A stretch of DNA of 64,000 bases. It comes from a virus. The notes under the pieces were generated by a model. The model saw only the letters and a list, made by a program, of their open reading frames with translations. It did not search any database and was not told the origin of the DNA. Both the position numbers and the translations under genes were made by a program. Positions 4,708-64,000 of the stretch are shown piece after piece. The stretch lies in IMG/VR virus record IMGVR_UViG_3300007517_000007, positions 7,285 to 71,284 of that record, one strand, 5' to 3'. Every line of letters starts with the position of its first letter. The first letter of the stretch is position 1.

Positions 4708-4934
4708 AGCTCGGCGTCGATGCCGGGGTCGATGTGTGCATGGCGGACCTCGTCGTGCTTCACCAGCATGATCGACTGGCCTTTCCACGAGATGGCCGAC
4801 ACACCGAAGTCGGAGTCGATGAACTCGTCGAAGAACAGGGCGAGACGTTCGGCCTTCGCGTCGCCGTGCTCGTCGACCAGTGCCTTACCATCGACCGGTC
4901 CCGGTTGGCTCGCCACGAACACGTCGACACTCAT
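4704..4934 (-). CDS. Hypothetical protein, leaderless
   Basis: ATG lies 7 nt after the TACAGT -10 of the promoter at 4942-4962; coupled to the helicase. Confidence 0.6.
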   Translation of the reverse strand: MSVDVFVASQPGPVDGKALVDEHGDAKAERLALFFDEFIDSDFGVSAISWKGQSIMLVKHDEVRHAHIDPGIDAEL

Positions 4935-7760: not shown

Positions 7761-7798
7761 GATCCGACAAGGTAAGTGTACCACGGTGTGCGACGTTT
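7761..7798 (-). promoter_or_regulatory. Long early promoter cassette, copy 1
   Basis: CGTCGC-N9-TACACT...TGTCGGATC followed by an RBS; near-identical to 8563-8600 and 47962-47999. Confidence 0.85.
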
Positions 7799-8562: not shown

Positions 8563-8600
8563 GATCCGACATGGTAAGTGTACCACGGTGTGCGACGTTT
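8563..8600 (-). promoter_or_regulatory. Long early promoter cassette, copy 2
   Basis: 38-nt near-identical repeat of 7761-7798. Confidence 0.85.
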
Positions 8601-9322: not shown

Positions 9323-9357
9323 GATCCGACACCACCAGTGTATCACGGTGTGCGACA
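9323..9357 (-). promoter_or_regulatory. Long early promoter cassette, copy 3
   Basis: TGTCGC-N9-TACACT...TGTCGGATC. Confidence 0.8.
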
Positions 9358-9947: not shown

Positions 9948-11265
9948 CTTCGGCGTCGAGTTCCTCGCTGGTCATCAGCACCTCACGGGCCTTGTTCCCG
10001 GATGCCGGGCCGACGACGCCTTGCTGTTCGAGTGCGTCCATGATCGCACCTGCCTTTGCGAACCCGACCATCAGCTTGCGTTGAATCATCGACGTCGAAC
10101 CCAACTGAGAGGTCACGACCAACACCTTCGCCTGACGCACCAGCGTGTCGAACTCGGCGATCGAGTCGCCCTGCGCGTTCGCGCTGAGCGGGTCGTCGCC
10201 TTCGTTGATCACCGGTTCGTGCTGGCGGTAGTCGCCGAGATCCGCCGACGTCTTGTAGGCGGGTGCGATGTCGTGCTTGCCGGTGTCGGCGTCGGCGTCT
10301 TCGCCGATCACGCCGTCCTCAGCGAGCTGCCCGAGGATGGTCTCGGCGTGGTCTTCGGTGATGTCGAGAGCGGCCGCTACGGACTTGACGGTGGCGTACC
10401 CGGCGTCGACGACGAACTCGGCGGCGCGTCGGACCTGCGCGTCGATGGCGTCAGCGAGGATCGCCGCGGTGTTGTCGTCGGTGACTTCGGTGCGGAGCAG
10501 TTCCGTGTACCAGTCGTCGAGGTGTTCGGAGAACTCGCGCATCTCACCTTCGACGTCGGCTTCCTCAGACTGCGGGACTTCTTCACCGGCGTTGCCTGTC
10601 GGCATGACGAGACCGGTGACGTTCACGTCGGACGGGCCTTCGATGCGGATGCGGGCGACGCCGACCGATCCGCCCAGATCGAAACGGATCACGGCCTTGT
10701 CCCACAGCCCGGACAGCTTCCCGAGTCGGAGGATGCCGTTCGCGCCGAACCCGATCGTGGCTGCCGGGGCCCACTTGTGACCCTGCCACAACGGCCGCCA
10801 GTTCGGGAACACCCCCTCGAAGATGGGGGTCTCGATGGACTCGTCGTACTTCTCGACGATCCGGAAATGCACCGTCGACGCAGCCAACCCTTCGAGAGTG
10901 TTGTGGTCGGAGCCGTCCTGTTCGCCGACAGCGAACTCCATCGTGGTTCGGGTGTCGTGGCCGTCGGCTTTCGTGAGTTGCTGCGCGTACTTCATGAGGC
11001 CGAGCACCCGATGGTCGAGGTCACGGCAGATCGCGACGTCGTCGGGGAGTTCCTCGATCAACGGTTCGGGGGCGTCGTCGTTGTCGGTGTTCGGCACCCA
11101 CGCTTTCAGCAGAACGAACGTGTCGGTCGACAGCAACCGGATGCCGGTCTCGAACGTCTCGATCAGGGTGGTGCGGTACAGCACGGGGCGGCCGTCGTCT
11201 TCCGACTGCGCGAGAGCCACCGAGGCCCATGAGCGTGCAAGGTTCCAGGCGTTGAATTGGATCAT
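9931..11265 (-). CDS. Beta-clamp-like domain fused to tandem FtsK-gamma winged helices
   Basis: DDGRPVL...STDTFVL...EGVFPNWR (clamp-like); [31 protein letters not shown] (FtsK gamma). Confidence 0.7.
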
Positions 11266-11299
11266 GCGTCGGACCGTACCAGGTCATGCGACACCTAAG

Positions 11300-11428
11300 T
11301 TCGGGGCTGCCCCAGCACGTCTGCTGGGGCGGCCCCTACGATCGAGGACGCTTCCTCCAGTGAATCCCGGATCGGAACCGGTCCGTCCGGGTGGGGCCTA
11401 GTTTCGCGATACCACAACCCTCAATCGC
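11300..11428 (-). ncRNA. Candidate structured small RNA
   Basis: Own promoter at 11435-11455, no ORF, four stem-loops including the 15-bp stem at 11303-11336. Confidence 0.45.
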
Positions 11429-11457
11429 AAGAGCACTGTATCACGCCGTGCGACACA

Positions 11458-11667
11458 TCAGCGAGGCGGGCGGGTAATACCGCGTCGGATCTCGGCGAGC
11501 TGCGTCGAGATCCGACGGATGCGTTCGTCGTCGTGATCGGCGCACCAGTGCTTGCCCCACGGTGTACCGGCCGGTTCGTCACACCCGGCCGTCAGGCATA
11601 CCCTCTTTGTGTTGGCGTACGAACGGCGATCGTCGGCGCTCAACGCCTCCCATTCCTCGCGTCTCAT
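11458..11667 (-). CDS. Small zinc-finger-like protein
   Basis: CLTAGC...WCADH; coupled to the uORF at 11664-11687. Confidence 0.5.
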   Translation of the reverse strand: MRREEWEALSADDRRSYANTKRVCLTAGCDEPAGTPWGKHWCADHDDERIRRISTQLAEIRRGITRPPR

Positions 11668-11737
11668 CGGGCATCGCCGTGTTTCATGTGGAACATCGTC
11701 TCATACGGTGCGACACTCTGCTGCTACGGTGCATCCG

Positions 11738-12439
11738 ATGACGGCGAAGGCACCGCTCCCGGAGCAGGAGTGCGCGGGTTGCGGTGTGATGTTCGTACCG
11801 AAAACGAAGCGGCAACGGTTCCATACACCGAAGTGTCGGACGGTCACGAAGGCCGCAGCGAAAGCGAAAGCCGACGCCGAGCCGACGCCGCAAGCGAAAG
11901 TGATCCAGTGGGCGACGGCGCACGGCGCGCCGGTCCGCATGCTGATCGGGTGGGATCCTGCGAGCGGTGAGTGGGCCGACGGTTCGCCGATCGGGGACGT
12001 CCTCGCTGACATCGCTCGCGGGTCGCACCTGGTTATCACTGGCAGACGTCACGGGTTCCACGACATGACCTCGTTGTTGCTGCGTGGCGCAGAGTACGCG
12101 AACGCCTCGGAGGATCGCGCTCACATCCCGATCGAGGTGCTGCCTCTCGTTGACCTGTTCAGCCTCGTGAACTACCACGAGTCCGGAGCGGAGATCGAAC
12201 TGTCGAACACCGTGTACGACGAAGCGTTGAAGAACGGCAAACTCGGTCTCGACTTCCTCGGTCGGCGCTGGCCTGCGCGTTGGCGTGAGCAGCAAGCCAT
12301 CTCGTCGATCGACGAAGACGACATTCGCGAACAAGCCGTGACGGCGCTCATCGAAGACCCGGCCACCGCGATTCAGTTGGCGGCGATGGCTGCGAAGATC
12401 GAAGACGACATCGAGGCCAACGAACGCTCCAACGCCTAA
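11738..12439 (+). CDS. Probable terminase small subunit with N-terminal zinc ribbon
   Basis: Directly upstream of terL; FLGRRWPARW motif; ATG 7 nt after TACGGT. Confidence 0.6.
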   Translation: MTAKAPLPEQECAGCGVMFVPKTKRQRFHTPKCRTVTKAAAKAKADAEPTPQAKVIQWATAHGAPVRMLIGWDPASGEWADGSPIGDVLADIARGSHLVITGRRHGFHDMTSLLLRGAEYANASEDRAHIPIEVLPLVDLFSLVNYHESGAEIELSNTVYDEALKNGKLGLDFLGRRWPARWREQQAISSIDEDDIREQAVTALIEDPATAIQLAAMAAKIEDDIEANERSNA

Positions 12440-12445
12440 CCGGCA

Positions 12446-13987
12446 ATGGCAACACAGCACGATCTCGCTCAGCGGGCCTGGAAGGCCATGCCGCACACGA
12501 TGGGCCGACGCCTGTCGGAACGGACGTACAAGGCACCACAGCACGTCCAGTTCATCTCCTGGCTGCTGTACCTGTCCGCCACGTTGAAGAACCGGCGGCC
12601 GATCGTCCCACGGTTGGGGATCAGCTTGCCGCCTGGTTCGGGCAAGTCGGAGATCGTCGACTTCTACAACCCGATCTGGCTGCTGGAGCACGACGCGCGT
12701 CGCCGGATCATTCTGGCGTCCTACGCCGGGACGCTCGCTGAGGAGCAAGGCAAACGGGTCCGCAACCAGATCGAGATGGCACAGGACGTCCTGACGTGCC
12801 GGATCATGCAGGACTCGCGTGCCGCCGACCGGTGGCGGACGAGCAAGAACGGTGGCATGTGGACCGTCGGTGTCGGCGGTTCGATCACCGGTCGTCGCGC
12901 GTCGAACTTCCTCATAGACGACCCCCATAAGAACTTCGCTGAGGCCACGTCGGAGAAAAACCAGTTGGACGTGTGGAACTGGTACACGTCGACGGCGCGC
13001 ACCCGTCTGCTTCCCGGGTCGGCGTTGATGGTGATCCAGACCCGGTGGGCGGAGATGGATCTGATCGGCCGGTTGCGGGCCCAGGACGAAGCGAAGAACC
13101 AGTGGTTGTTCGTGAAGCTGCCTGCGATCGCTGAGGAGAACGAGTCGACAAGGTCGGTGCTCGGCGATTTCTGGTGCGACCGGTTGGAGTCGATGGGTGT
13201 GCCGTTGTTCGAGTGGCGGCGCGGGGAAGGCGAGGCGCTCTGGCCGGAGTTGGAGCCGGGTGTTCCCTGGTTCGACGTCGAGGAGTACGAACAGATCCGC
13301 CATGAGGTCGGCGAGATGGTGTGGGCTGGGCTGTACCAGCAACGCCCGGCACCGCTCGAAGGCGAGATGTTCAAGCGGTCCGATTGGGTTCGGGTGGACG
13401 CGATGCCCGCCGGGCCGCACACGATGGTGCGGCGATGGGACTTGGCGGCGTCGGTCAAGGGTGACTGGACCGCGACCTGCCTCATGGCGTACCACCACGC
13501 CACCCGCATGCCGTACATCCTGGAGATGAACCGGGACCGGCTGACTGCGCCGGAAGTGAAGGCCTTTGTTCGCGACACCGCCGAGTACGACCGGGAACGG
13601 TTCGGGGATGTCGTGCACATCCGGATCGAACGTGAACCGGGCTCGTCCGGCAAGAACGTCGAGTCGGACTACCTGCTCGAAGTGCTGCCCGATTTCAACT
13701 CGGTGAAGTTCCTGTCGTCGTCGGGTGACAAGACGGTCCGGGCGTACCCGTTGTCGTCGCAGCAAGGCTCCATGCACGTCCACATCTGCCGTCGCGACGT
13801 CGGCGGGACGTTCGAGACACCGAACTGGTGGCAATGGCTGATCGAGGAAGCAGCAGCGTTCCCGAACGCGAAGCATGACGACCTCGTCGACGTCGCCTCG
13901 TTGGCATGGGTGGACCTCGTCGAGCTGGTACCGCGGTCAGGACGCGCCCGGGCGAAGACGACCGCTCGACGCCAGCTCGGGTTCTAG
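12446..13987 (+). CDS. terL: Terminase large subunit
   Basis: PPGSGKS, LIDDPHK, TRWAEMDL, LYQQRP, WDLA, FPNAKHDDLVD. Confidence 0.95.
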   Translation: MATQHDLAQRAWKAMPHTMGRRLSERTYKAPQHVQFISWLLYLSATLKNRRPIVPRLGISLPPGSGKSEIVDFYNPIWLLEHDARRRIILASYAGTLAEEQGKRVRNQIEMAQDVLTCRIMQDSRAADRWRTSKNGGMWTVGVGGSITGRRASNFLIDDPHKNFAEATSEKNQLDVWNWYTSTARTRLLPGSALMVIQTRWAEMDLIGRLRAQDEAKNQWLFVKLPAIAEENESTRSVLGDFWCDRLESMGVPLFEWRRGEGEALWPELEPGVPWFDVEEYEQIRHEVGEMVWAGLYQQRPAPLEGEMFKRSDWVRVDAMPAGPHTMVRRWDLAASVKGDWTATCLMAYHHATRMPYILEMNRDRLTAPEVKAFVRDTAEYDRERFGDVVHIRIEREPGSSGKNVESDYLLEVLPDFNSVKFLSSSGDKTVRAYPLSSQQGSMHVHICRRDVGGTFETPNWWQWLIEEAAAFPNAKHDDLVDVASLAWVDLVELVPRSGRARAKTTARRQLGF

Positions 13988-14220
13988 TCGACGGACTTGA
14001 AAGCGCGTGGCGTGGTCACTGCGACGATGCCGGTGTCGGCGAACACGTCGTTGATGTCGTACTCCGGTGAGATGCCGTTCGCTTTCATCTCGGCGATCTC
14101 CACGACCAGCTTGTCGAACGTGGCCGTCTCGTGGGCGGTCATCCTGCCCGGCGGGCGTTTCCCAGCGATGGCTGCCCCGTAGAGCACCTTCATTCGATTG
14201 TCTCCGATTGGTTTCCTCAT
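13984..14220 (-). CDS. Nested in-frame leaderless 78-aa peptide (candidate antitoxin)
   Basis: Promoter TGTCGC-N9-TACAAT at 14228-14248; ATG exactly 7 nt downstream and in frame with the kinase. Confidence 0.6.
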   Translation of the reverse strand: MRKPIGDNRMKVLYGAAIAGKRPPGRMTAHETATFDKLVVEIAEMKANGISPEYDINDVFADTGIVAVTTPRAFKSVD

Positions 14221-15309
14221 ACTTGACATTGTACCACCTTGTGCGACACCTGCGGCGGCTGCGAGGGCTTCATCTTGCAGGAACGACAGCGTCAACGTGG
14301 TCGGGATCGAAGGGACGCGCCCGAGGTACTTTTCCCAGGCAGCCCGGTCGTGCACGACGAGGTTGCCTTGACCGTCAGCGACCGCCGTCAGTACGGGAGC
14401 CTGTTTCACCCCGTTCAACTTCGGGAGGGTGGTGACCAACTGTGACCGGGCGGTTGTCTGTGAGGCGACGTCGAGGAACGCAGCATTCGCGCCGACGTGC
14501 CCGTCGCGCAGCACGGATTCCGGGACGCCGCGACCCGTCGTTTTCTGGCGCTCCAGAGCGCCTGCGACGGCCTGATCTATCTCGGTGGTGACGTACGCAA
14601 CCTCGACTTCGTATCCTTCGCGTTGCAGGCGTTGGATCTCTTTGACGGCTTTCGGCCCGTCCTTGGACGTCTTGTCCATCAGGATGTTGGTCCCTCGTTC
14701 CAAGGCACCGGTGGTCAGCCGTTTCGCGAGGAACGAGGACTCCTCGTGAGCGATCGACGCCCACGCACCCGGATGGTCGTTGGCGAGCCCGTTGCCTTGT
14801 TTGCCTTCGTTTGACGGACCGGTGGTTTCCGGCAGGACCACCTTGAACTCGTCCGGGTTGATCGTCAGGGCACCTTCGGGTACGTCGATGAAACCCGCCT
14901 CGATTGCCGACGACTTGCCCGACGCTGCGCCGCCACCCATGACCACAGCTTTCTTGTTCGTCGACCGTGGGAACGGCTTGCCAGTTTTCTTGTCGGTCAT
15001 GGCCGTGGCGATGATGTCGTCATGGACTGCTTGACGGGCCGGGGTCAGCTTGCCGTCACTGCCGATGTGAGGCAGCAGCGTCGACTCGATCTCGTCGGTT
15101 TCTGGCACCGGGTCGAAACCGGCTTGGAGTTCCGCTCTCGACGGCAACCGTTCGTTGGCCCCCAGCGATCGAAGCGCCCCGAGGACCGAACCGGAGTCGC
15201 CGACGATCTCACCGCCGGACGAACCGCCGCCACCCCAGCGGCCGCCACCGGCCGCACCAGCAGGCACACGAGGCTGATTCGGGTCGTAACGGAACTGGCG
15301 GACACTCAT
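13984..15309 (-). CDS. Tagged zeta-toxin-family P-loop kinase with C-terminal extension
   Basis: N-terminal FRYDPNQPRVPAG..GGRW tag; MGGGAASGKSS, INPDEFK, HEESS, ILMDKT, TGRGVP. Confidence 0.85.
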   Translation of the reverse strand: MSVRQFRYDPNQPRVPAGAAGGGRWGGGGSSGGEIVGDSGSVLGALRSLGANERLPSRAELQAGFDPVPETDEIESTLLPHIGSDGKLTPARQAVHDDIIATAMTDKKTGKPFPRSTNKKAVVMGGGAASGKSSAIEAGFIDVPEGALTINPDEFKVVLPETTGPSNEGKQGNGLANDHPGAWASIAHEESSFLAKRLTTGALERGTNILMDKTSKDGPKAVKEIQRLQREGYEVEVAYVTTEIDQAVAGALERQKTTGRGVPESVLRDGHVGANAAFLDVASQTTARSQLVTTLPKLNGVKQAPVLTAVADGQGNLVVHDRAAWEKYLGRVPSIPTTLTLSFLQDEALAAAAGVAQGGTMSSMRKPIGDNRMKVLYGAAIAGKRPPGRMTAHETATFDKLVVEIAEMKANGISPEYDINDVFADTGIVAVTTPRAFKSVD

Positions 15310-15334
15310 GGTCGGATCCTATTGCAGCGGCCGG

Positions 15335-15682
15335 TTACAGCAGTGACTGCTCGGGTGAGGCCCGGCCGAACGACAGTGTTGCGACGGCGCGTGGCCAGTC
15401 TGCGGGCATGCGCCAGATGTCGACGTCGAGCCCGGACGCTGCCAGGGTCGCCAACCACTTTTTCTGGTCCTCCTCGACGACGGTCTTTGCCTCTTTGATC
15501 TCCCGGAAGATGGTGATCTTGCGTGCCGGGTGGGAGAACACGAAATCGGGCCACCCTTTGTGACCGGACAGGGCGGTGAGGTGACGGCCGTTGGCCTGCT
15601 GCACGGTTCGGTCGTGCTTCACCCGCCACCCGTGCTGCTTGGCGAGCGACTCCAGCTTCGGGTACCAATCAGTCTCGCGCAC
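15335..15682 (-). CDS. VRR-NUC/PD-(D/E)XK nuclease
   Basis: GWPDF...FREIK...QKKWL..L...VDIWR. Confidence 0.8.
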   Translation of the reverse strand: MRETDWYPKLESLAKQHGWRVKHDRTVQQANGRHLTALSGHKGWPDFVFSHPARKITIFREIKEAKTVVEEDQKKWLATLAASGLDVDIWRMPADWPRAVATLSFGRASPEQSLL

Positions 15683-15706
15683 GACGCTCCCGGGTCGACC
15701 GGCGTT

Positions 15707-16147
15707 TCATGGTCGGCGCGATGAGACCGGGTGCCGAGTCCAGCCGACCATCGGGCGGCCGACTGTCGGTTCATCGCCGGGCCGGTCACCGAGTTCGTCG
15801 GTCGGGACGTCAGCCCAACGGACCACGGGAGGGCCGAGACCTTCACCGGTGTCGGGATCCCAGTCGGCGAGAGTGTCGATCTTCAACGGTTGGAGGTCGA
15901 GCTGCACCCGGCCGGTGTCCATGTAGGTGTACGCCTCGCCGTCGAGGAGGACGATTTCCTGCTCGGTGCCGAAGTCGAGGACGAGATACCACTGCGACGG
16001 GAATCTGGCGTTGGGTTGCCATTCGAGGATGTCTTCGCGCCACACCTCAGCGGTTCGGATGGATCCTTCCGGGGATCGGAACGTCAGGTTGATGGCCGGG
16101 GACTGGATGCGTTCCGCCCGGGTTGGTTCGTGATGTCCGGGGAGCAT
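15707..16147 (-). CDS. Hypothetical protein, leaderless
   Basis: Promoter at 16154-16174, 6 nt before the ATG. Confidence 0.55.
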   Translation of the reverse strand: MLPGHHEPTRAERIQSPAINLTFRSPEGSIRTAEVWREDILEWQPNARFPSQWYLVLDFGTEQEIVLLDGEAYTYMDTGRVQLDLQPLKIDTLADWDPDTGEGLGPPVVRWADVPTDELGDRPGDEPTVGRPMVGWTRHPVSSRRP

Positions 16148-16175
16148 CCGGTCAGTGTGTCACATGGTGCGACAC

Positions 16176-16829
16176 TCAGCGTTGTGATGTCCAAGCCTCG
16201 ACGAGACGTTCGACGTGCGCCGCTGCGAGCACGGTTGGTTCGCCGAGATGTTCAACGGTGAGTTCCCAGCCGATCGGTTCGTCGTTGCGGCGGTACTCGG
16301 TAAGGGTCACGTCCAGCCCTGACCGGTACGCCCACTCGATGCCGTCGAACCACATGACGCAGGCGTCTTCGGACTCGAAACTGAGCCGGGCGCGCATGGC
16401 GTAGAGGTCGGTCGGGATGATCGACCGGCGTCGTCGGTAGTCGTCGGCGTCAGCGTTCAGTTCCCAACGGAGTGCTTCGAGGGCTTCGGTCTGGTCGGTG
16501 TCGTCGACGATGATCAGGTCGACGTTGTCGTCGACTGCGGCTTCGATGATGCCGCAGGCGTCGGCAGGTCCGCCGTCGAGCACGAGCGGGATGGCACGCG
16601 GCGAGTTGTACCAGATGCCGTCGATCATCAACACCGGGCACGCTGCGAGGGTGTCGCAGTCCCACACCCGCAGGTACGCGATGTCAACGGTGAGGTGCGG
16701 CAGCAGGTGAGCGACGCGTCGACGTGACTGTTCGGACCATTCCCACCGGTGGTACACCGACGGTGCGCGCAGGGTCATCGACGCCCACTCGTATCGGTCG
16801 CTCACGAAGCGGACGGCTTCCACCTTCAT
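16176..16829 (-). CDS. Hypothetical protein
   Basis: MKVEAVRF start; protein-like composition. Confidence 0.55.
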   Translation of the reverse strand: MKVEAVRFVSDRYEWASMTLRAPSVYHRWEWSEQSRRRVAHLLPHLTVDIAYLRVWDCDTLAACPVLMIDGIWYNSPRAIPLVLDGGPADACGIIEAAVDDNVDLIIVDDTDQTEALEALRWELNADADDYRRRRSIIPTDLYAMRARLSFESEDACVMWFDGIEWAYRSGLDVTLTEYRRNDEPIGWELTVEHLGEPTVLAAAHVERLVEAWTSQR

Positions 16830-16851
16830 TGACCGAAAGTGTGCCACAGAC

Positions 16852-16949
16852 GCGCAACGGCCGAGACTCCCCTGGAGGAATCTCGGCCTGCGCCACCGGC
16901 CGGGCAATGGTCGGATCGCCGTAACCGGTGGACCGGAAGGAACCGGACT
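16852..16949 (-). ncRNA. Candidate small RNA or structured leader
   Basis: Promoter at 16956-16976; ends in the long hairpin 16852-16893. Confidence 0.35.
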
Positions 16950-17253
16950 AAGCCCACTGTACCCGATGGTGCGACACAGACCTACCCGGCCTGCGACAGC
17001 GGAGGCACAGCTCGCAGGTGCCGGGACGCGCGCGCTTGTCTGAGCTGGAGCGGTGTCTGCCCGGACGCCGCCAGGATGTTGTCGACGAGAGATCGCGCAC
17101 CGGGCTTCGCAGCGAACCAGGGTCGAGCGTCGGCAACATCGACGACAGGGCATCCCTGCTGCAATAGCCACGGCGCAACGCCGATAGCACGCAGCGTCGA
17201 CGCTCCCTGCGGGCATGCCATCGCGTGGTGTCTTCCAGCACAGAGCGCACAGA

Positions 17254-47961: not shown

Positions 47962-47999
47962 GATCCGACAAGGTAAGTGTACCACGGTGTGCGACGTTT
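47962..47999 (-). promoter_or_regulatory. Long early promoter cassette, copy 4
   Basis: Identical to 7761-7798. Confidence 0.85.
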
Positions 48000-48663: not shown

Positions 48664-48724
48664 GTTGTCCTTTCAGGGTTGATCCGACACTGTTAGTGTA
48701 CCACGGTGTGCGACAGATCCACAG

Positions 48725-49184: not shown

Positions 49185-49259
49185 GATCCGACACGGTCAT
49201 TGTACCACCATGTGCGACATTCCGTACGAGGTGTGTTGTGTCGTACGACATGGAAGGAT
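49185..49259. promoter_or_regulatory. Divergent promoter pair
   Basis: Minus strand TGTCGC-N9-TACAAT (49199-49219); plus strand TGTCGT-N9-AAGGAT (49239-49259), 7 nt before ATG 49267. Confidence 0.7.
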
Positions 49260-51350: not shown

Positions 51351-51381
51351 GCCTGTCATTGTCGCACAGGCACCGACAGTT

Positions 51382-55246: not shown

Positions 55247-55555
55247 ATGTGGCAGGCTTGCGAGGTGGGCATCCCGTTGGACATCGAAGGCATCGCCCAA
55301 TGGAAGACCGCGTCGCTGCGGGTTGCTGACCAGTTCCTCGTCGGCGGGGAGGTCCACCCGTTCACGACGTTCCAACTCGATCAGATCCTCGCCGCAGCAC
55401 GCGACGCCGGACTATCCGAGCGCGAGCAAGGGGCGTTCCTGGTGTCCGTCATCGCGTCGGACATGGAGAACCGTGGATGGGCGGGCGTGCCGCGATCGAA
55501 GCAGTTGACGCTCGCGACAGCGTTCGCGATGCGGATGATCCACCCCGACGGTTAG
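55247..55555 (+). CDS. Hypothetical protein (start uncertain)
   Basis: Lone plus-strand ORF downstream of a quasi-palindromic promoter. Confidence 0.5.
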   Translation: MWQACEVGIPLDIEGIAQWKTASLRVADQFLVGGEVHPFTTFQLDQILAAARDAGLSEREQGAFLVSVIASDMENRGWAGVPRSKQLTLATAFAMRMIHPDG

Positions 55556-55689
55556 ACGGTGGGGTCGACGAACCGGCGGGGCTTGGCGGCGGGCTTCGCC
55601 TTGGCCACGGGTGCAGCGTCGGGCGCGCCTTCGAGTTGCTTCGCCTGCCGCTTCCATTCGCCCGGCCCCTTGAACTTGGTCACGATCAC
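55552..55689 (-). CDS. Nested in-frame leaderless 45-aa peptide
   Basis: TGTCGG-N9-TTCAAT at 55697-55717; GTG exactly 7 nt downstream and in frame. Confidence 0.5.
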   Translation of the reverse strand: MIVTKFKGPGEWKRQAKQLEGAPDAAPVAKAKPAAKPRRFVDPTV

Positions 55690-56415
55690 AGAGCCCATTG
55701 AACCATACGGTCCGACAGAAAGTTCTTCCCGGTCGGCGACGTGCGGCGGCCAGTAGCCGTTGCCGTCAGCGAAGTGGTAGGCCCCACCGATCGCGCGTGT
55801 GGCTGCGCCGATCGTGTGGACGTCGGCGAGGTTGTCGACGACAGTGACGGGGTCGAAGTCGATCCGGTCGAGGTCGTCGTCGTGGAACACACCGAGGTAG
55901 TGGTTCTGGCGTTCGAGGACCGTCCGGAACTTCGCCTTGGCCTGGTCCATCGCTGCGTCGAACTGCTCGCGGGAGGCGTCCTCCGGGACGCTCACCGTGT
56001 CGACGCCGTTGTCCTTCACCGTGAGCGCGTACTTGTCTGCGCCGTCGGGAAGGAACTCGCCGGTGCGGGCGTCGATCGTGGCCCCACCCCACGATTTCTG
56101 TGCTTCGACGAAAGCGCGTTGTCGGATCTCGTCCCAGTTCTCGTCGAGTCCGATCGGCTGCGAGTTGGCGGCGAACTCGTCGAGCTGAGCCCGGCCGATA
56201 CGGGCGAGTCGTTGGAACTCGTCTGCTGACACCGGTCGGCTGTCCCCGCGCGCTTCGCTCGCGTTGATCGGCTCGAACTGTGCGCCTCCCCCACGCCGAC
56301 CGTGCGACTGCTGATCGTGCTGGCCCTCAAGATGGAACGTGGCTGTGGTGTCGTCAAGCGGGCCCCTGCGGACCAGCACCCAGCCAAGGTCGGCACTGAT
56401 TCTGGGCACGGTCAC
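55552..56415 (-). CDS. Tagged cargo protein with an unknown domain
   Basis: FHLEGQHDQQSHG tag; WGGATID...YLGVFHD...IDFDP domain. Confidence 0.75.
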   Translation of the reverse strand: MTVPRISADLGWVLVRRGPLDDTTATFHLEGQHDQQSHGRRGGGAQFEPINASEARGDSRPVSADEFQRLARIGRAQLDEFAANSQPIGLDENWDEIRQRAFVEAQKSWGGATIDARTGEFLPDGADKYALTVKDNGVDTVSVPEDASREQFDAAMDQAKAKFRTVLERQNHYLGVFHDDDLDRIDFDPVTVVDNLADVHTIGAATRAIGGAYHFADGNGYWPPHVADREELSVGPYGSMGSVIVTKFKGPGEWKRQAKQLEGAPDAAPVAKAKPAAKPRRFVDPTV

Positions 56416-58307
56416 TGGATCACCTCGGTCTCGATAGCTCTGACCGTCACCCCACCGGCGACATAGTCAGTGACGTTCACGACTCGGTAACGCGTTTCGG
56501 GTGGCATCACCCATTCTCTTTCGTCGATGCCGTCGTCGACCATCGAACCCTGAGCCATGATCGGAAGGGCTTTCGCTCCGTTCGTTTTCACCGACATGAC
56601 CACTCGACGCGTGTCGGGATCCCCGACGATCGGGTTGCGTGCGAAGTCTTGAACGATTCGTTTCTCTTGCGTCGTGGACATAAACCCGGGGCTCTCGAAC
56701 TCGTCACCGACACGCATCTGGAACTCCGGCCATCCAGAGGCTGACGCCGCCTGACCGCGATACACGTACTCGGGGGCCGTCTGACCGTACTTGTCGATTC
56801 CTTCGGTCAGTGCCTGCACCCTCCCCGGCAAACTGTCGGCAGCTCTCGCCTGACGTTCGGCCTCGATCCGCTGATTGAACGGGCCCGCTTCCTCCGGTGT
56901 CAGTGCCCGGTGGACCACGTCCTTCCGACGAAAATCGACCGGGATGAGCGTCCCGTCAGCTTCGACCATCACCCACGTCGCCGGGCCGTGAGCGGCAGAG
57001 AGCGGTTGAAGCGGCGGGATCTCCCCGGTCCGCAGATAGGTGTTCATCTGGTGCGAGATGCCGCCCCGGTACGCGTGGTGGGCGTCAGTGAACTCGGGAT
57101 CCTCGGATGACGCTGCGTACAGCTTAGACGTGGCGGTCTCATGCCGTCCAGGCCAAGCGCCGGACGGGAGGCTCTGGGAAGCAGCAAAGACAAGCTCGCC
57201 GTCGTCGATGTCACCCAAGTCGACAATGGTGGCGCTACCAGACCCGGCCCCTCCACGCCGACCGTGCGACTGCTGATCGTGTTGGCCCTGGAGATGGAAC
57301 ACCTCGACCGACGCCGCCATCTCGTCGCCGTCTTCCTCCCAGTCGACCGGGCCGTCACGCCGACCGGCGGACTTCCTTCGCCAATACTCCTCAGCGGCCT
57401 CCGGCGACAACCACTTCGGGTCGATGCCACCTCGACTGTCGATCTCGTTGATCGTCTCCCACCGACCGACGGAGTTGCGAGGCTGATTCGGATCGAACCG
57501 GAACACGGCGATTCCCAGCTCGTCGCGAAGGCTCGGGTAACGCCGGTACAGCTCCTCCGCACCGGCACCGAACCCGTCGCTGTCCTGCCCCCACACCGAC
57601 TCCCAATGGCCCCCAACTTTGACCTGGACGTCGATGATGTCGACGGGGGTGCGGCCGTCGACACAGACCTCCATTTCGCCTCCGACCATGCTTCCCTGAC
57701 GGTTCCGGTCGACCGAGTTGCCGTCAGCGTCGACGAACGCTGTGCGGCCGTCGGGGGTGTCGACCTCTTGGACGAGGATGTCGGACTGACGGGCCCTGGC
57801 CGTGACCTTCACGACCAGATTCATGCCCCTCCCGGCGTTCACCGACTCGGCGACGCCTTCGCGTGTGGTCCATGACTGGCCGAGCCCGCTCAGCGACTCG
57901 ATGCGCTGATGGCCCTCGAAGCCGAGTAGCTGGTCGGCGATGATCGGCCCGAGCTGGAGGTGCTGGTTGAACTCGTCGGGCTCCGCCCCCGAGTACATCT
58001 GAGTGTCGATGCGCCGTTTCAGGTCGTCAGACACGTTGATCGCAAGGCCGCGGTGCATGACCGGACCATCGAACTTCGACTGGTTGACACCCCGCCGGGC
58101 GGCCTTCGCTACGCGTTCGGTCTCCGCTGCCGCTGCACCCTTGTACTGGCCTCCACCGGATCCGCCGCCCCAGCGGCCACCGTCCGACGAACCAGCGGGA
58201 ACACGAGGCTGATTCTCGTCGAACGCCAGCTCCGCCGTGGCGGTCAGGGTGTCGCGCATCCAGTCGGGGCCGCCCACCATCGGGTCGTCGATGTTGATGA
58301 TCATCAC
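56412..58307 (-). CDS. Tagged polyvalent protein with two ADP-ribosyltransferase domains
   Basis: HRGL/QSWTT/EMEV and MNTYLR/VYRG/FMSTT/EREW (VIP2-like); three tags. Confidence 0.8.
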   Translation of the reverse strand: MMIINIDDPMVGGPDWMRDTLTATAELAFDENQPRVPAGSSDGGRWGGGSGGGQYKGAAAAETERVAKAARRGVNQSKFDGPVMHRGLAINVSDDLKRRIDTQMYSGAEPDEFNQHLQLGPIIADQLLGFEGHQRIESLSGLGQSWTTREGVAESVNAGRGMNLVVKVTARARQSDILVQEVDTPDGRTAFVDADGNSVDRNRQGSMVGGEMEVCVDGRTPVDIIDVQVKVGGHWESVWGQDSDGFGAGAEELYRRYPSLRDELGIAVFRFDPNQPRNSVGRWETINEIDSRGGIDPKWLSPEAAEEYWRRKSAGRRDGPVDWEEDGDEMAASVEVFHLQGQHDQQSHGRRGGAGSGSATIVDLGDIDDGELVFAASQSLPSGAWPGRHETATSKLYAASSEDPEFTDAHHAYRGGISHQMNTYLRTGEIPPLQPLSAAHGPATWVMVEADGTLIPVDFRRKDVVHRALTPEEAGPFNQRIEAERQARAADSLPGRVQALTEGIDKYGQTAPEYVYRGQAASASGWPEFQMRVGDEFESPGFMSTTQEKRIVQDFARNPIVGDPDTRRVVMSVKTNGAKALPIMAQGSMVDDGIDEREWVMPPETRYRVVNVTDYVAGGVTVRAIETEVIQ

Positions 58308-58308
58308 G

Positions 58309-60363
58309 TCATGCCTCCCTGTTGACCGGGGTGAGTTCCTCGATGTCGATCGGGTTGCCGAGCAGGATGACCTCGCGCTCGCGCAGCGAACCCCACCCGG
58401 TGGTCGATGCCATCCCGACGATCTGGTTGATCGGGACTTCGGCGCGCATCATCCACCCACCGCCCGACGAGTGCTCCCCGCCGAACTGGCGTGCGATGCC
58501 GATGTCAGTCGTCCATGACGACAACGGGTTGCCCTGCGTCACGGTCGCGCCGGTCATGTTGGTCGCTGAGTGACCGGAGTCCTTCACACCTCGGTACACG
58601 GTGATCGTCGACCGGTTGTCGCGTCGCACACCGTTCAGGATCGTGTCCTCGATCGCGAACTGGTCAGCCTCGATGATGTGGTTGATCGTGGTCGGCATCA
58701 GGTTCCGGATGCCTTTGGCCTTGTCCATCGCCCCGCCCGGGTAGTACCCGTTCAGTGCCGCCGTTGCTGCGGACAGGTTTTTCTGTTCAGCGATCGCGAG
58801 ATGGAACGCCACCATGCCAGGGGTGACTGCCGACTGCTGCCATTGCGAGTTACGCCAATCGACTGCGCCGTGCGCGACCGTGACCCCGGTCGCCTCCTCG
58901 ACGATCGCCGACATGGCTGCCGGGTCGCCGCCTGCCGTGAACGCTTCGACCGCTACCTGGACGCGTTCGGTCACCTCCGACTTCGGGTAGTCGACTCGCC
59001 AGGCTTTAGCCGCCGTCGAAAGTTGCATCGCGACACCGAGCGGGAGCCGCCCCACCACTTCGCCACGCAGACCGAAGTCGGCGATGTCGTTCTCGATGTC
59101 CTGCGCGATCATGATCCGCTGCAACGAGTCCATCTCGGCCAGGGTCTGTGCGTTGAGTTCGTCGGCGATCTCCTGCCGGGTTTCCTCACCCATGTACAGC
59201 ACGACCGTCGCTGCGCCGTCCTGCTTGAACTTCCCGGCGTTCGATTCGTTCCCGGCGTACTGGTCACTCAACGACTCGACGTCGTCGTACGGGAACGGGG
59301 TGCCGTCCTCGCGTGTTGCCGGGTTCTGCTCGAACCCGCCCGGGCCGCCACCACCACCCCAGCGGCCGCCGTCCGACGAACCAGCAGGGACACGAGGCTG
59401 ATCCGGGTTGTAACGCAGCGCCTGCGTGATAGGGGACCGAGATCCGGGATCGTCGCGAAGAATCGAGAGAGATGCGGAGCGGGTCGGGTCGAGGAACTTG
59501 ACGCCGTCCCACGACGACGAGCTGAGAAACACCTGCTTGAACCGTGGAGAGATCGCGAGGAGATCAGCGCCGTACACCGGTTCGATCTCGTTGCGGTTGT
59601 CGTCCCATTGGGCCATGACCGCCTCGAACTCACGGTACTTGGCGTTGTCGGAGCCGAGCACCCCGTTGCGGACCTCGAACCGGGCGTACGCCTGCCATTC
59701 CTCGATCGTCGAGTCGGTGTAAGTCCCATACCCCGCCGCCGCCCACGAGTACCGGCCAACATCGACGGCGTTCAGCTCGAACGTGAACACACCGAGTTCG
59801 TCGGCGAGCCCCTGCTCTGTGCGCTCGGCGAACTCGGTGCCGATCCCCTGGTTCTGAAACTCCGGTTCGATAGTCAGGTACTCGTTCTTCACGATGCCGT
59901 TCGAGTACATCGTGCGTTGGAAGTCCCCTACGGGATCTCCGTTCGGGGCGTCGATTGTGCCAGCAATGGAAATGTCGGTCGTGCCTGGATTCGTCAACGA
60001 AGCGAACTCCTCGATCTCCGCCCGCACCGTGTACTTCTCGCCGTTGGCGGTGATCTGGAAGTCGTAGATGTCCGACAACGCCGACAGCCGATCCTCAGCA
60101 GAGATTTCGGCGACGAACGGGCGTCGAGCAGCGCCCCCACCGGCGTGCGTCTGCTGATCGTGCTGGCCTCGGAGGTGGAACACGGTGAGCCCGTCGACGG
60201 TGAACACCTCCTCGTCGTCGTCGTCCTCGTCGTTTTCGGGGTCACCGGCTGCTTCGGCGTCGGACTGCTCCGACATGAACACCGGGGCCAGCTTCACGAG
60301 ACGGCCGAGCGTGTCGATCATGGCTTGCTCGTCTTCGCGAGTCGTCGTGGCGTTGACGGTCAC
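58309..60363 (-). CDS. Tagged polyvalent protein: GNAT-like plus ADP-ribosyltransferase
   Basis: FQNQGIGT; VYRGV/LSSWTT/EREV; two tags. Confidence 0.8.
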   Translation of the reverse strand: MTVNATTTREDEQAMIDTLGRLVKLAPVFMSEQSDAEAAGDPENDEDDDDEEVFTVDGLTVFHLRGQHDQQTHAGGGAARRPFVAEISAEDRLSALSDIYDFQITANGEKYTVRAEIEEFASLTNPGTTDISIAGTIDAPNGDPVGDFQRTMYSNGIVKNEYLTIEPEFQNQGIGTEFAERTEQGLADELGVFTFELNAVDVGRYSWAAAGYGTYTDSTIEEWQAYARFEVRNGVLGSDNAKYREFEAVMAQWDDNRNEIEPVYGADLLAISPRFKQVFLSSSSWDGVKFLDPTRSASLSILRDDPGSRSPITQALRYNPDQPRVPAGSSDGGRWGGGGGPGGFEQNPATREDGTPFPYDDVESLSDQYAGNESNAGKFKQDGAATVVLYMGEETRQEIADELNAQTLAEMDSLQRIMIAQDIENDIADFGLRGEVVGRLPLGVAMQLSTAAKAWRVDYPKSEVTERVQVAVEAFTAGGDPAAMSAIVEEATGVTVAHGAVDWRNSQWQQSAVTPGMVAFHLAIAEQKNLSAATAALNGYYPGGAMDKAKGIRNLMPTTINHIIEADQFAIEDTILNGVRRDNRSTITVYRGVKDSGHSATNMTGATVTQGNPLSSWTTDIGIARQFGGEHSSGGGWMMRAEVPINQIVGMASTTGWGSLREREVILLGNPIDIEELTPVNREA

Positions 60364-63300
60364 GCCTCGACCTCCCAGTCGTTGAACACCGCCGGGTTGA
60401 TGTACGACTTCAACGACGTCGACGGTGTGTTGCCGAGAATATCCGACACGGCGACACCGACCGTCTTGCGTGCCCGTTCCAGCGCCGCCTGCGACGGGTA
60501 CCGCTTCGGGAGCGCCGCCACCCTCGACATCGCGATCGTGTTGGCCTTGTACGTGCGGATGTCATGGTTCTTGAAGTCGGAACCGGTGACCCGGTCGATG
60601 TAGTCGTCGGTGCTCGCAGCGTTCGTGTCGAACAAGCGGTCGCTGCCGGATTTGCCCGACTTCCAGGCGTTCATCGTCGACGCGAGCGCCGGGTCGTTCA
60701 CAGTGATGTCGACGGGCTTCGATCCTTTGCCCTCGAACCGGATCCGGACTTCGTCGCCGGACACAGTGACGTGTCGGGCTTCGAGCGACGACGCGCCGTA
60801 GGTGGCCTTGCCTGATCGGGTACCTCGCGCTGCGGTGCCGCCACCGGAGTCGATGCGGATCCCGGTGGCGCGCATCACTTGAACTGCTGCGGCGTCCGGG
60901 TTCGTCGTAGCGTCTTCGGCGATCGCCTTGTCGAGCTTCGGCATCGCCCGATGCAGATCGGCTTGGCGTTCGTACTTGGCTTCGGCCTGCCGTTTCGAGT
61001 GGGCCTCCGAGTAAGTCGACTGGACCTGACCGTTCGGGGCGACACCGCGAGCGACGAGCCCGTTTCTGTTGCCGTCGGCCGAGTTGGCGACCATCACGTA
61101 CCGCATGCCGGGTGCGACACCGAGCGCTTTGCGTTCCTCTGCGGTCGCCTCGTGCAGCCCCGAGTTGTCGGACCCGCCGTGCACGGCGCGCATCATCGCT
61201 TCCTCATGGGTCTCACCGCGTCGCGTCGTGTACCGGGAGCGTTGCGCCTTCGAGAGAGTGTCGACTTCGGCTTGGATCGTCGCCGGATCCTTGTTCGACC
61301 CGCCGGTCCCGAACGGTGGCGGAGAGCAAGACGAGTCGTCGCAGCCCACGCTGAGCTGGTGCATCTCCGACGACAGGTGCGACATCGAAGCGTTCGAGAA
61401 CGACACCCGGCGGTCGCCGATCGTGCGGGCGGCGACACCGTTGGCGGCGTTGTAGGTGCGGGCCTGGTCGAGTAGCTCGTCGATCGGTAGGTCGATACGG
61501 ACTACGTCGACCGGTGACGCTGCCGGGTCGCCGTCGAGTTCCATGATCGCAGCGGCCGCCCACCGGTGATGCCCGTCCAGGATGCGGCCGTCCGACGACA
61601 CCATGATGCGATGCGCCGACCCGAACGAACCGTCCTGGATCCGTTCGATCATGCGGGCCACTGCGACCCCGTCGAGTTCGTTCTGTGTGGCCGACAGCGT
61701 CGACGCGTTCACGGTGTCATCGACGAACCCGACGCCCTGCTCGGCGAGTTGGTCACGGAACCCGTCGATGTGCACCCTCGGGATCTGCGGCATGTCCGCC
61801 CGGCCAATCGTGTTGCCACGCACCTCGGAGAACAGGTTGGGATACCCGTCGACGTCGACCGCGGTCAGGTCAACGGTGCCTTCGGTGATGTCAGCGAACG
61901 TCGCGACGATCCCAGCGACCTCCGACGGTGATGTCCGGATCGTTTCACCGGTCGCGATGCGGTCGGCGACACCCGACCCGATCGAGCCTCCACCGATCGA
62001 CGTCCACCGGCCGTCGTCGTCGCGAGCCTGCCCCGGGTCGAACCGGAACACGGTGATCCCGGCGGCGAGTTCGACGTCCTTCACGCCTTGGCGTTCGGTG
62101 AGTTCGTCGACGACGGTCTGGAACGCGTCTTTCTTCACGTACGCGCCCTCACGCCGGTAGTTGGCGTCGTCGACCTGCACGAACCGGTCGAGCTTCAAGT
62201 ACGACTCGCGACCGTTCTTGTCCCAGTCCCCGGACCCGACCGGCAGCCGATCGTCCGACGACCGACCAGGCTTCGAGGTGAGCTGCACACCGACCAGGTT
62301 CTTGCCGTCGGCGGTGCGTCCGATGATGAGCACCGGGCGGTCCTTCGACTGCGACGCGTCTTCCTCGAACGGGATCTTCGCCCACACGATCTCACCCGGG
62401 TCGGCCTTGCCGTCAGGGTGTCGCGGCCGGTACGCGATCCGCACATCGGAGAACGGCACGTCAGGGAGCACACCCGCAGGACGCCCACGACGGGCTGGAC
62501 GGGCTTTGCCGGGTGGTGGAGGGATCGGACGACCATCACGGCCGCCGCCACCCCAGCGGCCGCCTCCGGACGAACCAGCGGGCACACGAGGCTGATTCTC
62601 GTCGAACCTGAACACGGTGACGCCCTCCACGGCGAGGCCTTGCCGTTCGAGTGAGTCGATCCATGCTTTGCCGTCGTCGGTGCGAGCAATGGAGTGGGCG
62701 ATGTTCGGGATCTGGTCCTTGCCGAACTTCCACATCTCGGTGGCGATGTCCTTGCCCCGCCATTTCGGTTCGACGATGATGGACTGGACCTCGCGCACCT
62801 CGACGCCGTCCCTGGTCACCTTCGTCGTGCGGATCGCCGCAAGAGGTCGCGACCTGTTCGCTTCCGCTGTGGCACGCCAGAACTCCGGGGAGTGCACCTC
62901 GACAGCCTCGATGCTGCCGTACCCGACGAAGTCGAGCCGGACGGACTTGTCGCCGACAGCGATGATCTTCGACGTGGCGGGCACCGGCATGGAGTCGACC
63001 CCGGCATCCCAGTCGGCCCGGTCGATGCTTCCCCAATTCTTGTGCTGGATCGTGTTGAACCCGCCCTCGGACCAACCTGATTCGAGCGGGCGGGCCGTGC
63101 CTCCACCGGCGTGCGTCTGCTGGTCGTGCTGGCCTTGGAGGTGGAACGTCTCGACGGCCAGGTTCGCTGTTCGGGGGTCGCCGACGCGACGCACACCGTC
63201 CCACGACGGGCCATTGAGGAACACCGTCTTGAATCGGGGATCCACGGCAAGCAGGTCGGCCGGGTAGACCGAGCCGATGTCGTCAGACCACGAACGGAAC

Positions 63301-64000
63301 ACCGCCTCAGCGGCCGACGTGATCTCCGGGGTGAACGGTGTGGCCTGGCTCTGAGGGTTGCCAATGAGAGCCCGGGCCTCGTTGACCCACCGGTCACGGG
63401 TGAACGACGCTAGAGACGAGCCCGAGCCAGCGTCGAGCTGATACCCGCGTGCCGCCCACGCGTACTTGCCGACAGAAACTGCGCCCACCCGGTACTCGGT
63501 CGCGCCGAGCCCGGCCTCGGTCTGATCCAGGAACGCCGTCCCGATGCCTTTGCCCTGCTCGCCGACCGAGATGTTCAACGCATGGTTGAACACCGTGCCG
63601 TCTTCGTACACCGACCTACTGAACGTCCCCATTTCGACGCCGTCCGTGTCGTAGATCGACCCGGACACATCCGTCTTGATCGGCAACACCCCTTGCGGTG
63701 AGGTGGTGTTCACGTCACCGATCGTGTACGACCGCCCACCGACATCGAACTCGCCGGAGTACACGTCCTGCACCTTGGCGGCGAGCCGCTCCCGGGCGTC
63801 GGCTTCCCCGGCTGCCATTGCGGCTTTCGGGGTGGCGTGCTTCGATGCGCGATCGCCGTCCCAGGTGACGTCGTCGATACCGGTCTCCGCCAACCACGCG
63901 ACGAGGGCCTGCTCACCCTCGACGGTGTTCTGGTCGCCGTACATGCCGTACACGTCAGCGCCGGTCACCTCGCCGTCGTCTTCGATGAACACCACCTCGA
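60360..64000 (-). CDS. Tagged polyvalent protein (probably 5'-truncated): GNAT, GNAT, PemK/MazF, ParB/Srx, topoisomerase IB
   Basis: QGKGIGT; WRGKDIAT; DPGEIVW..PFEED....KDRPV; ILDGHHRW; GIRI/FEGKG/HDIRT/LGNT/KSYI. Confidence 0.85.
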   Translation of the reverse strand, partial: EVVFIEDDGEVTGADVYGMYGDQNTVEGEQALVAWLAETGIDDVTWDGDRASKHATPKAAMAAGEADARERLAAKVQDVYSGEFDVGGRSYTIGDVNTTSPQGVLPIKTDVSGSIYDTDGVEMGTFSRSVYEDGTVFNHALNISVGEQGKGIGTAFLDQTEAGLGATEYRVGAVSVGKYAWAARGYQLDAGSGSSLASFTRDRWVNEARALIGNPQSQATPFTPEITSAAEAVFRSWSDDIGSVYPADLLAVDPRFKTVFLNGPSWDGVRRVGDPRTANLAVETFHLQGQHDQQTHAGGGTARPLESGWSEGGFNTIQHKNWGSIDRADWDAGVDSMPVPATSKIIAVGDKSVRLDFVGYGSIEAVEVHSPEFWRATAEANRSRPLAAIRTTKVTRDGVEVREVQSIIVEPKWRGKDIATEMWKFGKDQIPNIAHSIARTDDGKAWIDSLERQGLAVEGVTVFRFDENQPRVPAGSSGGGRWGGGGRDGRPIPPPPGKARPARRGRPAGVLPDVPFSDVRIAYRPRHPDGKADPGEIVWAKIPFEEDASQSKDRPVLIIGRTADGKNLVGVQLTSKPGRSSDDRLPVGSGDWDKNGRESYLKLDRFVQVDDANYRREGAYVKKDAFQTVVDELTERQGVKDVELAAGITVFRFDPGQARDDDGRWTSIGGGSIGSGVADRIATGETIRTSPSEVAGIVATFADITEGTVDLTAVDVDGYPNLFSEVRGNTIGRADMPQIPRVHIDGFRDQLAEQGVGFVDDTVNASTLSATQNELDGVAVARMIERIQDGSFGSAHRIMVSSDGRILDGHHRWAAAAIMELDGDPAASPVDVVRIDLPIDELLDQARTYNAANGVAARTIGDRRVSFSNASMSHLSSEMHQLSVGCDDSSCSPPPFGTGGSNKDPATIQAEVDTLSKAQRSRYTTRRGETHEEAMMRAVHGGSDNSGLHEATAEERKALGVAPGMRYVMVANSADGNRNGLVARGVAPNGQVQSTYSEAHSKRQAEAKYERQADLHRAMPKLDKAIAEDATTNPDAAAVQVMRATGIRIDSGGGTAARGTRSGKATYGASSLEARHVTVSGDEVRIRFEGKGSKPVDITVNDPALASTMNAWKSGKSGSDRLFDTNAASTDDYIDRVTGSDFKNHDIRTYKANTIAMSRVAALPKRYPSQAALERARKTVGVAVSDILGNTPSTSLKSYINPAVFNDWEVEA

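Follow-up and report, generated by a model that had tools for sequence, protein, structure and literature searches.

The question raised by this locus is whether a phage kinase gene also encodes, in the same reading frame, a second protein that is expressed on its own. The DNA analysed (the window) is the 64,000-nucleotide (nt) stretch formed by bases 7285–71284 of the 71,284-bp IMG/VR record IMGVR_UViG_3300007517_000007, which has an estimated completeness of 84% and is without end repeats. Its minus strand carries a gene for a 441-residue protein composed of an N-terminal tag, a zeta/AvrRxo1-like kinase, a linker and a C-terminal tail. The codons of the linker contain a perfect copy of a promoter motif that recurs in the window, and an in-frame ATG opening a frame of 78 codons follows 7 nt later. 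We propose a gene-within-a-gene arrangement in which one frame yields two products. The full-length protein would be translated from an operon mRNA, whereas the consensus −26/−10 promoter in the linker codons would fire internally, with transcription starting at the A of the ATG. The leaderless mRNA would then be read from its first codon in an actinobacterial host to give a free 78-residue C-terminal protein, extra copies of which could restrain the kinase in trans, in a dose-dependent manner, within the phage-producing cell, either as an antitoxin-like or as a dominant-negative factor. We assign a probability of roughly 0.42 to this chain as a whole, from internal promoter to kinase brake. 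Its parts differ in strength: the internal site is very probably under selection at the DNA level, it probably directs synthesis of a free tail, and restraint of the kinase by that free tail is a tentative proposal.

The gene product is a zeta/AvrRxo1-like P-loop kinase by profile, by active-site residues and by fold; toxic activity is only presumed. The Pfam family Zeta_toxin (PF06414) matches residues 110–289 with E = 4e-25 and a score of 88.8 bits against a cut-off of 22.3. The Walker A motif GGGAASGKS occupies residues 125–133 and the catalytic aspartate is D153. K132 and D153 align with K46 and D67 of zeta (1GVN_B), and both are invariant in all 11 members of the family, which share 52–100% identity and were found among 5.8e9 clusters. 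An AlphaFold2 model based on an 11-row alignment (mean predicted local distance difference test score, pLDDT, 75; predicted template-modelling score, pTM, 0.75) is matched best by AvrRxo1-ORF1 (4z8t_A; VIA-align Z 17.6, root-mean-square deviation (rmsd) 4.4 over 251 aligned residues; Foldseek E 3e-8), followed by zeta (1gvn_B; Z 15.9, rmsd 3.1 over 219 residues), PezT (Z 14.8) and ng_zeta1 (Z 11.5). The zeta assignment made in the initial annotation of this DNA is thus borne out.

Within the kinase open reading frame (ORF), the minus strand reads GGT GTC GCA CAA GGT GGT ACA ATG TCA AGT ATG and encodes the peptide GVAQGGTMSSM. The promoter parts embedded in these codons are TGTCGC (14248–14243), a 9-nt spacer, ACAAGGTGG, that ends in TGG and constitutes an extended −10, and the −10 hexamer TACAAT (14233–14228). 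The sequence GTCAAGT (14227–14221) separates the −10 from the ATG of Met364, the predicted transcription start and leaderless start codon. Only two perfect copies of TGTCGCAC...TACAAT are present in the window, and the internal copy is one of them. The initial annotation had singled out this promoter and the ATG 7 nt beyond it, and had compared the spacing with that of the leaderless genes starting at 4934, 11265, 35662 and 51350. Both observations hold, and all four genes were located; the motif copy for the start at 51350 lies at 51378–51358, again with a gap of 7 nt.

Other readings of the region were tried. Translation of the tail from an internal Shine–Dalgarno start was rejected, the sole purine-rich word, GGTGG, ending 13 nt ahead of the ATG at 14220. 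A fusion of two genes by sequencing error was also rejected, as 11 independent sequences are open across the junction. No minus-strand ORF of at least 25 residues in another frame is present between 13984 and 14375.

The internal site belongs to a family of motifs that is far more frequent in the window than expected. TGTCG-N10-TACAAT with at most one mismatch has 12 matches against 0.36 expected, and TGTCGCAC-N7-TACANT with at most two mismatches has 22 against 0.96 expected; in neither case was the count reached in any of 100 shuffles. Among the 19 minus-strand copies, 10 have the leaderless layout, with ATG or GTG 6–7 nt past the −10 (those at 4934, 11265 and 35662 included). Six have a second TGTCGGATC box 5 nt past the −10 and a leadered start about 28–31 nt downstream, and three have neither a near start nor this box. 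Family promoters are often located in intergenic gaps of about 30 nt. A generic sigma-70 scan of 11000–16500 found no promoter-like sites, as expected because the family promoters have no −35 element.

The motif resembles the actinobacterial PafBC promoter, whose consensus, tGTCgg(N10)tA(N3)T, combines a GTC triplet between −23 and −28 with a canonical −10 and lacks a −35 (PMC8635444). The GTC box, the −10 and the missing −35 of the phage motif all fit, whereas its spacer is N9 rather than the N10 of the printed consensus. No gene for a WYL-domain protein is present in the phage record.

Codon choice and conservation at the site both point to constraint on the DNA. The homologue compared as DNA is L021, a metagenome contig of 2,568 bp that encodes a protein with 54% identity to the kinase; the other homologues are compared as proteins. 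The homologous codons of L021 read TGTCGCATCAGGTGGTACAGT, followed by 7 nt and an in-frame ATG. At the motif, A/T-ending codons peak at 8 of 10 in both genes, against backgrounds of 23% in the window gene and 17% in L021. Apart from one window at residue 344, residues 351–358 form the sole stretch in which 10-codon windows hold at least six A/T-ending codons in both genes. Synonymous codons were also resampled with the peptide kept (200,000 draws for the window peptide and 3000 resampled genes for each of the two). The perfect motif arose in 4.2e-4 of draws for the window peptide and a motif with at most one mismatch in 3.5e-5 of draws for the L021 peptide. A site with at most one mismatch appeared anywhere in the gene in 0.7% of the 3000 resampled window genes and in none of the 3000 for L021.

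The protein alignment leads in the same direction. V355, A356, G359 and T360, whose codons spell GTC-GCA and GGT-ACA, are at least 90% conserved in the 11 homologues. This conservation in a linker that is disordered in the model suggests a constraint on DNA rather than on protein. The start column holds Met in seven homologues and Val in four, always four residues past the Thr or Lys of the −10, and a 5′-terminal ATG or GTG is both required and enough for an mRNA to be translated in mycobacteria (PMC4633059). That the embedded promoter is not a chance occurrence agrees with the synonymous-site conservation and with the 7-nt gap and in-frame ATG kept in L021.

The full-length gene starts differently. 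The hexamer TAGGAT ahead of its ATG lacks a TGTCG box, as had been noted, and can be read as a weak −10 or, more probably, as an AGGA Shine–Dalgarno sequence 7 nt before the ATG. The nearest upstream member of the promoter family (16174–16154) likely drives an operon that comprises 16147–15707, the VRR-NUC gene at 15682–15335 and the kinase gene, the operon itself being deduced from gene order. Since this upstream promoter belongs to the same motif family, a difference in dose between the two products is as likely as a difference in timing; the separate schedule that the initial annotation had envisaged for the free tail is not supported.

The internal site coincides with a domain boundary. 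In the AlphaFold2 model the promoter-bearing linker (residues 347–365) separates the kinase body from a C-terminal helix pair (residues 370–382 and 392–410), which is followed by an extended peptide (residues 412–435). When the tail is modelled alone, the helices retain pLDDT values of 84–89 and residues 418–441 are disordered. The tail would thus consist of two helices in a hairpin and a C-terminal extended peptide that becomes ordered only when it binds, over the catalytic cleft.

Complex prediction gives a docked arrangement of this kind. Kinase residues 41–346 and tail residues 364–441 were submitted as two chains in three runs, with three controls; the alignments were custom and the calibration is rough. 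For kinase and tail, the three runs gave a median interaction prediction score from aligned errors (ipSAE) of 0.87, whereas the best control scored 0.02. Of 80 solved complexes, 58 attain the mark used for this score, as do 2 of 110 mismatched pairs. At least 84% of contacts are common to the runs, and the partner has a pLDDT of at least 75. The predicted interface involves P-loop residue A128, D153 and residues 259–266 on the kinase side and residues 412–435 of the tail, so that the tail is predicted to pack over the catalytic cleft. A pass in such a test is unsurprising because both chains are parts of one natural protein.

The tail is well conserved and rare. Its conservation equals that of the kinase core, with 13 invariant columns in tail alignment A2. 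The structural alignments to zeta and PezT end at model residues 331–333, before the tail, which places it outside the common core. A phmmer search with residues 349–441 against 1.84e9 representatives gave four matches: two clusters of fused proteins, P0014 and a repeat artefact, P0015. The tail family thus amounts to only three representative clusters among 1.84e9 proteins. P0014 is a 74-residue protein that starts at the equivalent of Met364 and ends with R-x-F-K. Its only source is one contig of 738 bp, so it may represent either a genuine stand-alone gene or a piece cut off at the contig edge. Single-sequence search found no stand-alone tails, and a profile search of short proteins returned P0014 only. 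The A2 tail profile gave 24 pattern matches in genome_contigs and 49 in viral_contigs, none of which was confirmed. Against solved structures, the best sequence-profile match in the PDB has E = 0.57 and the best Foldseek match E = 3.5 (none at E ≤ 0.001), and these searches revealed no similarity to epsilon, PezA or Arc1.

Several observations weigh against the proposal. Any well-packed domain would be expected to pass the docking test, which is silent on inhibition. A tail docked in cis would leave no free site for a copy acting in trans unless the cis tail opens. The tail is fused to the kinase in all 11 homologues, and in two of them (P0009 and P0011) it is followed by an FH..HDQS.H tag and about 150 further residues, so the internal product there would be a larger, two-module protein. 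The start-column valines of four homologues are known as amino acids only, and their codons may or may not be GTG. The VIA-align match to the AvrRxo1-ORF1 chain extends to model residue 416 and chain residue 421, and the ng_zeta1 alignment reaches residue 415 (in both cases these are the ends of the aligned ranges only). A review ties the C-terminal flanking helices of AvrRxo1-type kinases to dimerisation (PMC8196651). Lastly, contigs from four metagenome runs with at least 80% likeness to the window cover the site and show, among the differences listed, only 14211 and 14223 within 14174–14268, neither of them in the motif; as the differences listed are about half of those per contig, this carries little weight and is no proof of an intact motif.

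The AvrRxo1-ORF1 range raises the possibility that, in this branch of kinases, some of the tail belongs to the enzyme itself as a C-terminal flanking element. In the alternative that follows, the tail is a flanking or dimerisation element needed for activity rather than an inhibitor, and its free copy would serve assembly, oligomer control or virion targeting. Phage lambda offers a precedent in the C/Nu3 gene, which yields a C-terminal fragment from an internal in-frame start. Constant fusion, conservation equal to that of the kinase core and the tag that the gene shares with three giant ORFs resembling virion cargo would all be at home here. The predicted interface, however, reaches the P-loop and catalytic aspartate, the region at which epsilon acts on zeta. 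Arc1 acts on its toxin there as well (PMC8196651). In addition, the zeta and PezT alignments stop short of the tail, and the range ends do not show which tail residues are aligned to AvrRxo1. We consider this alternative doubtful. For the proposal that the free tail is a candidate antitoxin, as first suggested, the promoter conservation, the position of the linker at the domain boundary and the predicted docking at the P-loop and D153 stand; the tail is not epsilon-like and is always fused.

A second alternative grants an active promoter and moves its purpose downstream: the site would serve transcription of a co-oriented gene in relatives (antisense to the large terminase gene terL here), and the tail would be a tolerated by-product. 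An RNA initiated at the internal promoter would cross terL in the antisense direction; the minus strand from 14220 to about 11900 showed no terminator-like site. A relative in run X3 (about 90% identity) has, after the kinase stop, AAGGA on the same strand and then an ATG 7 nt on, replacing the convergent terL (loose end at 13973), and family promoters commonly occupy the short gaps between genes. Left unexplained are the in-frame start exactly 7 nt past the −10 in two lineages at 54% identity, the Met/Val column in 11 of 11 homologues and the coincidence of the site with a domain boundary. Moreover, the X3 arrangement implies that synteny around the gene varies among close relatives, yet the site persists. 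This explanation is unlikely in our estimation.

The site might instead be an operator or roadblock for a regulator that recognises TGTCGCAC, like the stoperators bound by repressors of cluster A mycobacteriophages, and not an active promoter. The repetition of the TGTCG word in the six cassettes with a second TGTCGGATC box does suggest a binding site for a TGTCG-reading protein. The resemblance of the box to the PafBC −26 element, tGTCgg (PMC8635444), is in line with this. In every copy, however, the −10 has the form TANNNT and its spacing is fixed, TGN being present in many; 10 of 19 copies lie 6–7 nt ahead of a start codon, and L021 keeps the −10 and the ATG spacing and not the box alone, all of which makes a pure operator quite improbable. 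Least probable is coincidence, with VAQGGTM kept for the sake of the protein and spelling the motif by accident: the pattern [VA]A-x-x-GT is indeed conserved in the family, but codon choice yields the motif only at the small frequencies given above (4.2e-4 and 3.5e-5 of draws) and the peptide lies in a segment with pLDDT below 50.

The features on which the proposed gene within a gene is based, and others of the window, are collected in Table 1.

Table 1. Coordinates of the kinase gene, its internal promoter and related features (window numbering)
Feature	Position	Strand	Remarks
Full-length gene, 441 residues and stop: tag, zeta/AvrRxo1-like kinase, linker, tail	13984–15309	−	ORF, Pfam, homologues, fold
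TAGGAT ahead of full-length ATG	15321–15316	−	6-nt gap to ATG; no TGTCG box 9 nt upstream
N-terminal tag, residues 3–47, RQFRYDPNQPRVPAG..GGRW	15303–15169	−	Common to three other large phage ORFs
P-loop kinase core, residues 110–289	14982–14443	−	Pfam Zeta_toxin
Disordered interdomain linker, residues 347–365	14215–14271	−	Codons carry the promoter; AlphaFold2 pLDDT <50
Internal promoter, TGTCGCAC-N7-TACAAT	14248–14228	−	Perfect match to family consensus; −26-type box TGTCGC(AC) at 14248–14241
ATG of Met364, predicted +1 and leaderless start codon	14220–14218	−	7 nt past −10
Nested in-frame ORF, 78-residue tail and stop	13984–14220	−	Opened by ATG at 14220
Terminase pair	11552–13987	+	Sole plus-strand block; large terminase gene terL at 12446–13987 (Terminase_6N/6C)
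Nearest upstream family promoter	16174–16154	−	One mismatch; ATG 6 nt beyond
Six near-identical TGTCGGATC-box cassettes	7775–7795, 8577–8597, 9337–9357, 47976–47996, 48695–48715, 49199–49219	−	
Second intragenic motif copy, TGTCGGACCGTATGGTTCAAT	55717–55697	−	Two mismatches; inside 287-residue ORF 55552–56415
Three adjacent large tag-bearing ORFs	60360–63995, 58309–60363, 56412–58307	−	

The N-terminal tag of the kinase is disordered in the model (pLDDT <50 over residues 1–40) and has matches at 62487–62621, 59335–59421 and 58128–58232 (E 9e-10 to 2e-8), in the three large ORFs. Those ORFs contain a PemK/MazF-like region (residues 533–632), a topoisomerase IB (residues 1002–1193), a weak DRAT-like match or no Pfam family, and by analogy they look like polyvalent, virion-delivered cargo proteins. 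R-x-F-[RKQ] together with the tag bounds the modules of this family, occurring ahead of the kinase and behind the tail and never between them. This absence lends no support to removal of the tail at maturation, by which the initial annotation had supposed the toxin to be armed. The check that it had suggested, a search for homologues with the tail as a separate downstream gene, likewise produced only fused forms, with P0014 on its short contig as the sole short form. Should the kinase itself be virion cargo, its inhibitor would be both fused to it and self-promoted from the linker codons by a PafBC-like −26/−10 promoter. The free antidote would be tied to transcription in the producer cell and the delivered kinase would arrive without it; this extension is speculative and we think it unlikely.

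Further observations touch the modular layout. In 10 of 11 homologues R-x-F-[KRQ] closes the tail (RAFKSVD here, at 13987–14010); the exception, P0010, is cut short. This is the same R-x-F word that opens the tags (RQFRYD), as though the boundary persisted at the protein end. In P0004, two copies of the tag ahead of the kinase enclose about 260 additional residues. The L021 family member spans 749–2530 of its contig and is modular as well.

The second intragenic copy of the motif (Table 1) has, 7 nt past it and in frame, a GTG at 55689, which would give a 45-residue basic C-terminal peptide ending in RRFVDPTV; this observation is at the sequence level only. A second tagged gene of the phage (55689–55717) may repeat the nested design.

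The genome has a G+C content of 64%, and its minus strand holds nearly all credible genes. The stop codons of terL and the kinase gene overlap convergently in CTAG (13984–13987). The neighbours of the kinase gene encode a VRR-NUC nuclease and an ORF without a Pfam family. Separately, 16148–17253 comprises about 1.1 kb without an ORF of the high third-position G+C usual in this genome, and contains at 16976–16956 on the minus strand a perfect TGTCGCAC...TACAGT copy, which no start codon follows within 14 nt; the region may hold a non-coding transcript or an unusual gene.

Relatives are few. Megablast of 13000–16000 against 50,697 phage records gave no match, and tblastn of the whole kinase protein against the same number of deposited phage genomes found eight records, all below 33% identity and over residues 146–272 only. 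The A1 scans recovered 16 viral and 18 metagenome loci, among which L021 is the sole close relative; the others are 27–40% identical, in the kinase core.

If the tail is indeed a product of its own, standard annotation overlooks a protein that is signalled solely by a promoter in synonymous positions. This would be the first zeta/AvrRxo1-family kinase known to have its regulator as a nested in-frame gene; no zeta/AvrRxo1-type kinase with an in-frame nested product is described in the literature searched, the PezAT review included and supplements not covered. More cases could be sought by a simple rule: a consensus promoter and an in-frame RTG within a disordered linker.

How does this arrangement compare with known kinase toxins? 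With epsilon/zeta and PezA/PezT (PDB 1GVN, 3Q8X and 2P5T) it shares the kinase fold and the aligned Walker A lysine and catalytic aspartate. The differences are that no upstream epsilon or PezA gene was found here and that, by the searches made, the tail is not a three-helix epsilon bundle. A search of the 71-kb record (completeness 84%) for Epsilon_antitox gave nothing at E ≤ 1, in keeping with the earlier statement that no epsilon-like antitoxin is encoded separately.

The AvrRxo1:Arc1 system of Xanthomonas and its relatives (PDB 4Z8T/4Z8V) provides the best fold match to the kinase. Its arc1 antitoxins are helical proteins of 81–121 residues encoded directly downstream of avrRxo1 (PMC4938570), and Arc1 contacts the substrate-binding aspartate of AvrRxo1 (PMC8196651). 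The tail resembles Arc1 in its downstream position, its size and its predicted aspartate contact, but Arc1 is a separate gene and the tail is fused. Read by eye, the tail does not contain the Arc1 motif KExFD(x25–27)(Y/L)ExxYY (PMC4938570).

Zeta-like kinase domains are also known from phage polyvalent and MuF-fused effectors (Iyer et al. 2017, PMC5512222). The present gene is similar in that it encodes a zeta-like kinase of a phage and in that its modular tag recurs in giant multi-domain ORFs. It differs in that the kinase stands alone as one module, and the excerpts of PMC5512222 contain no internal promoter or nested product.

In EzeT of Escherichia coli, a cis-acting antitoxin domain and a zeta-like UDP-N-acetylglucosamine (UNAG) kinase form one fusion protein (PMC4826407, PMC10532202). 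The likeness lies in a kinase and a putative inhibitory module in one chain, probably derived from a fused two-gene operon. In EzeT, however, the antitoxin domain is N-terminal and separate expression is not described in the text drawn on, whereas the phage module is C-terminal, unrelated in sequence and equipped with a predicted promoter of its own; the N-terminus of the phage kinase is a disordered tag, not an epsilon-like antitoxin domain. If the proposal is correct, this promoter restores the re-supply of antitoxin that, according to the EzeT authors, fusions lose.

The genetic layout is closest to that of RpnL/RpnS in E. coli, where RpnS is produced from an internal promoter and an internal start and binds and blocks RpnL (10.1101/2023.05.02.539157). 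The phage gene would share with it an intragenic promoter and an in-frame start, and its putative small product would, like RpnS, correspond to the C-terminal domain of the longer protein. In the Rpn system the toxin is a bacterial PD-(D/E)XK nuclease of anti-phage defence, whereas the gene described here encodes a phage P-loop kinase with a predicted leaderless internal start, and the comparison is one of genes alone. The phage gene is a member of neither system, since its toxin fold differs from that of Rpn and the position and sequence of its module differ from those of EzeT; at most it would work like the Rpn system and like the fused EzeT. If so, it would be a phage-side counterpart to the bacterial Rpn genes-within-genes.

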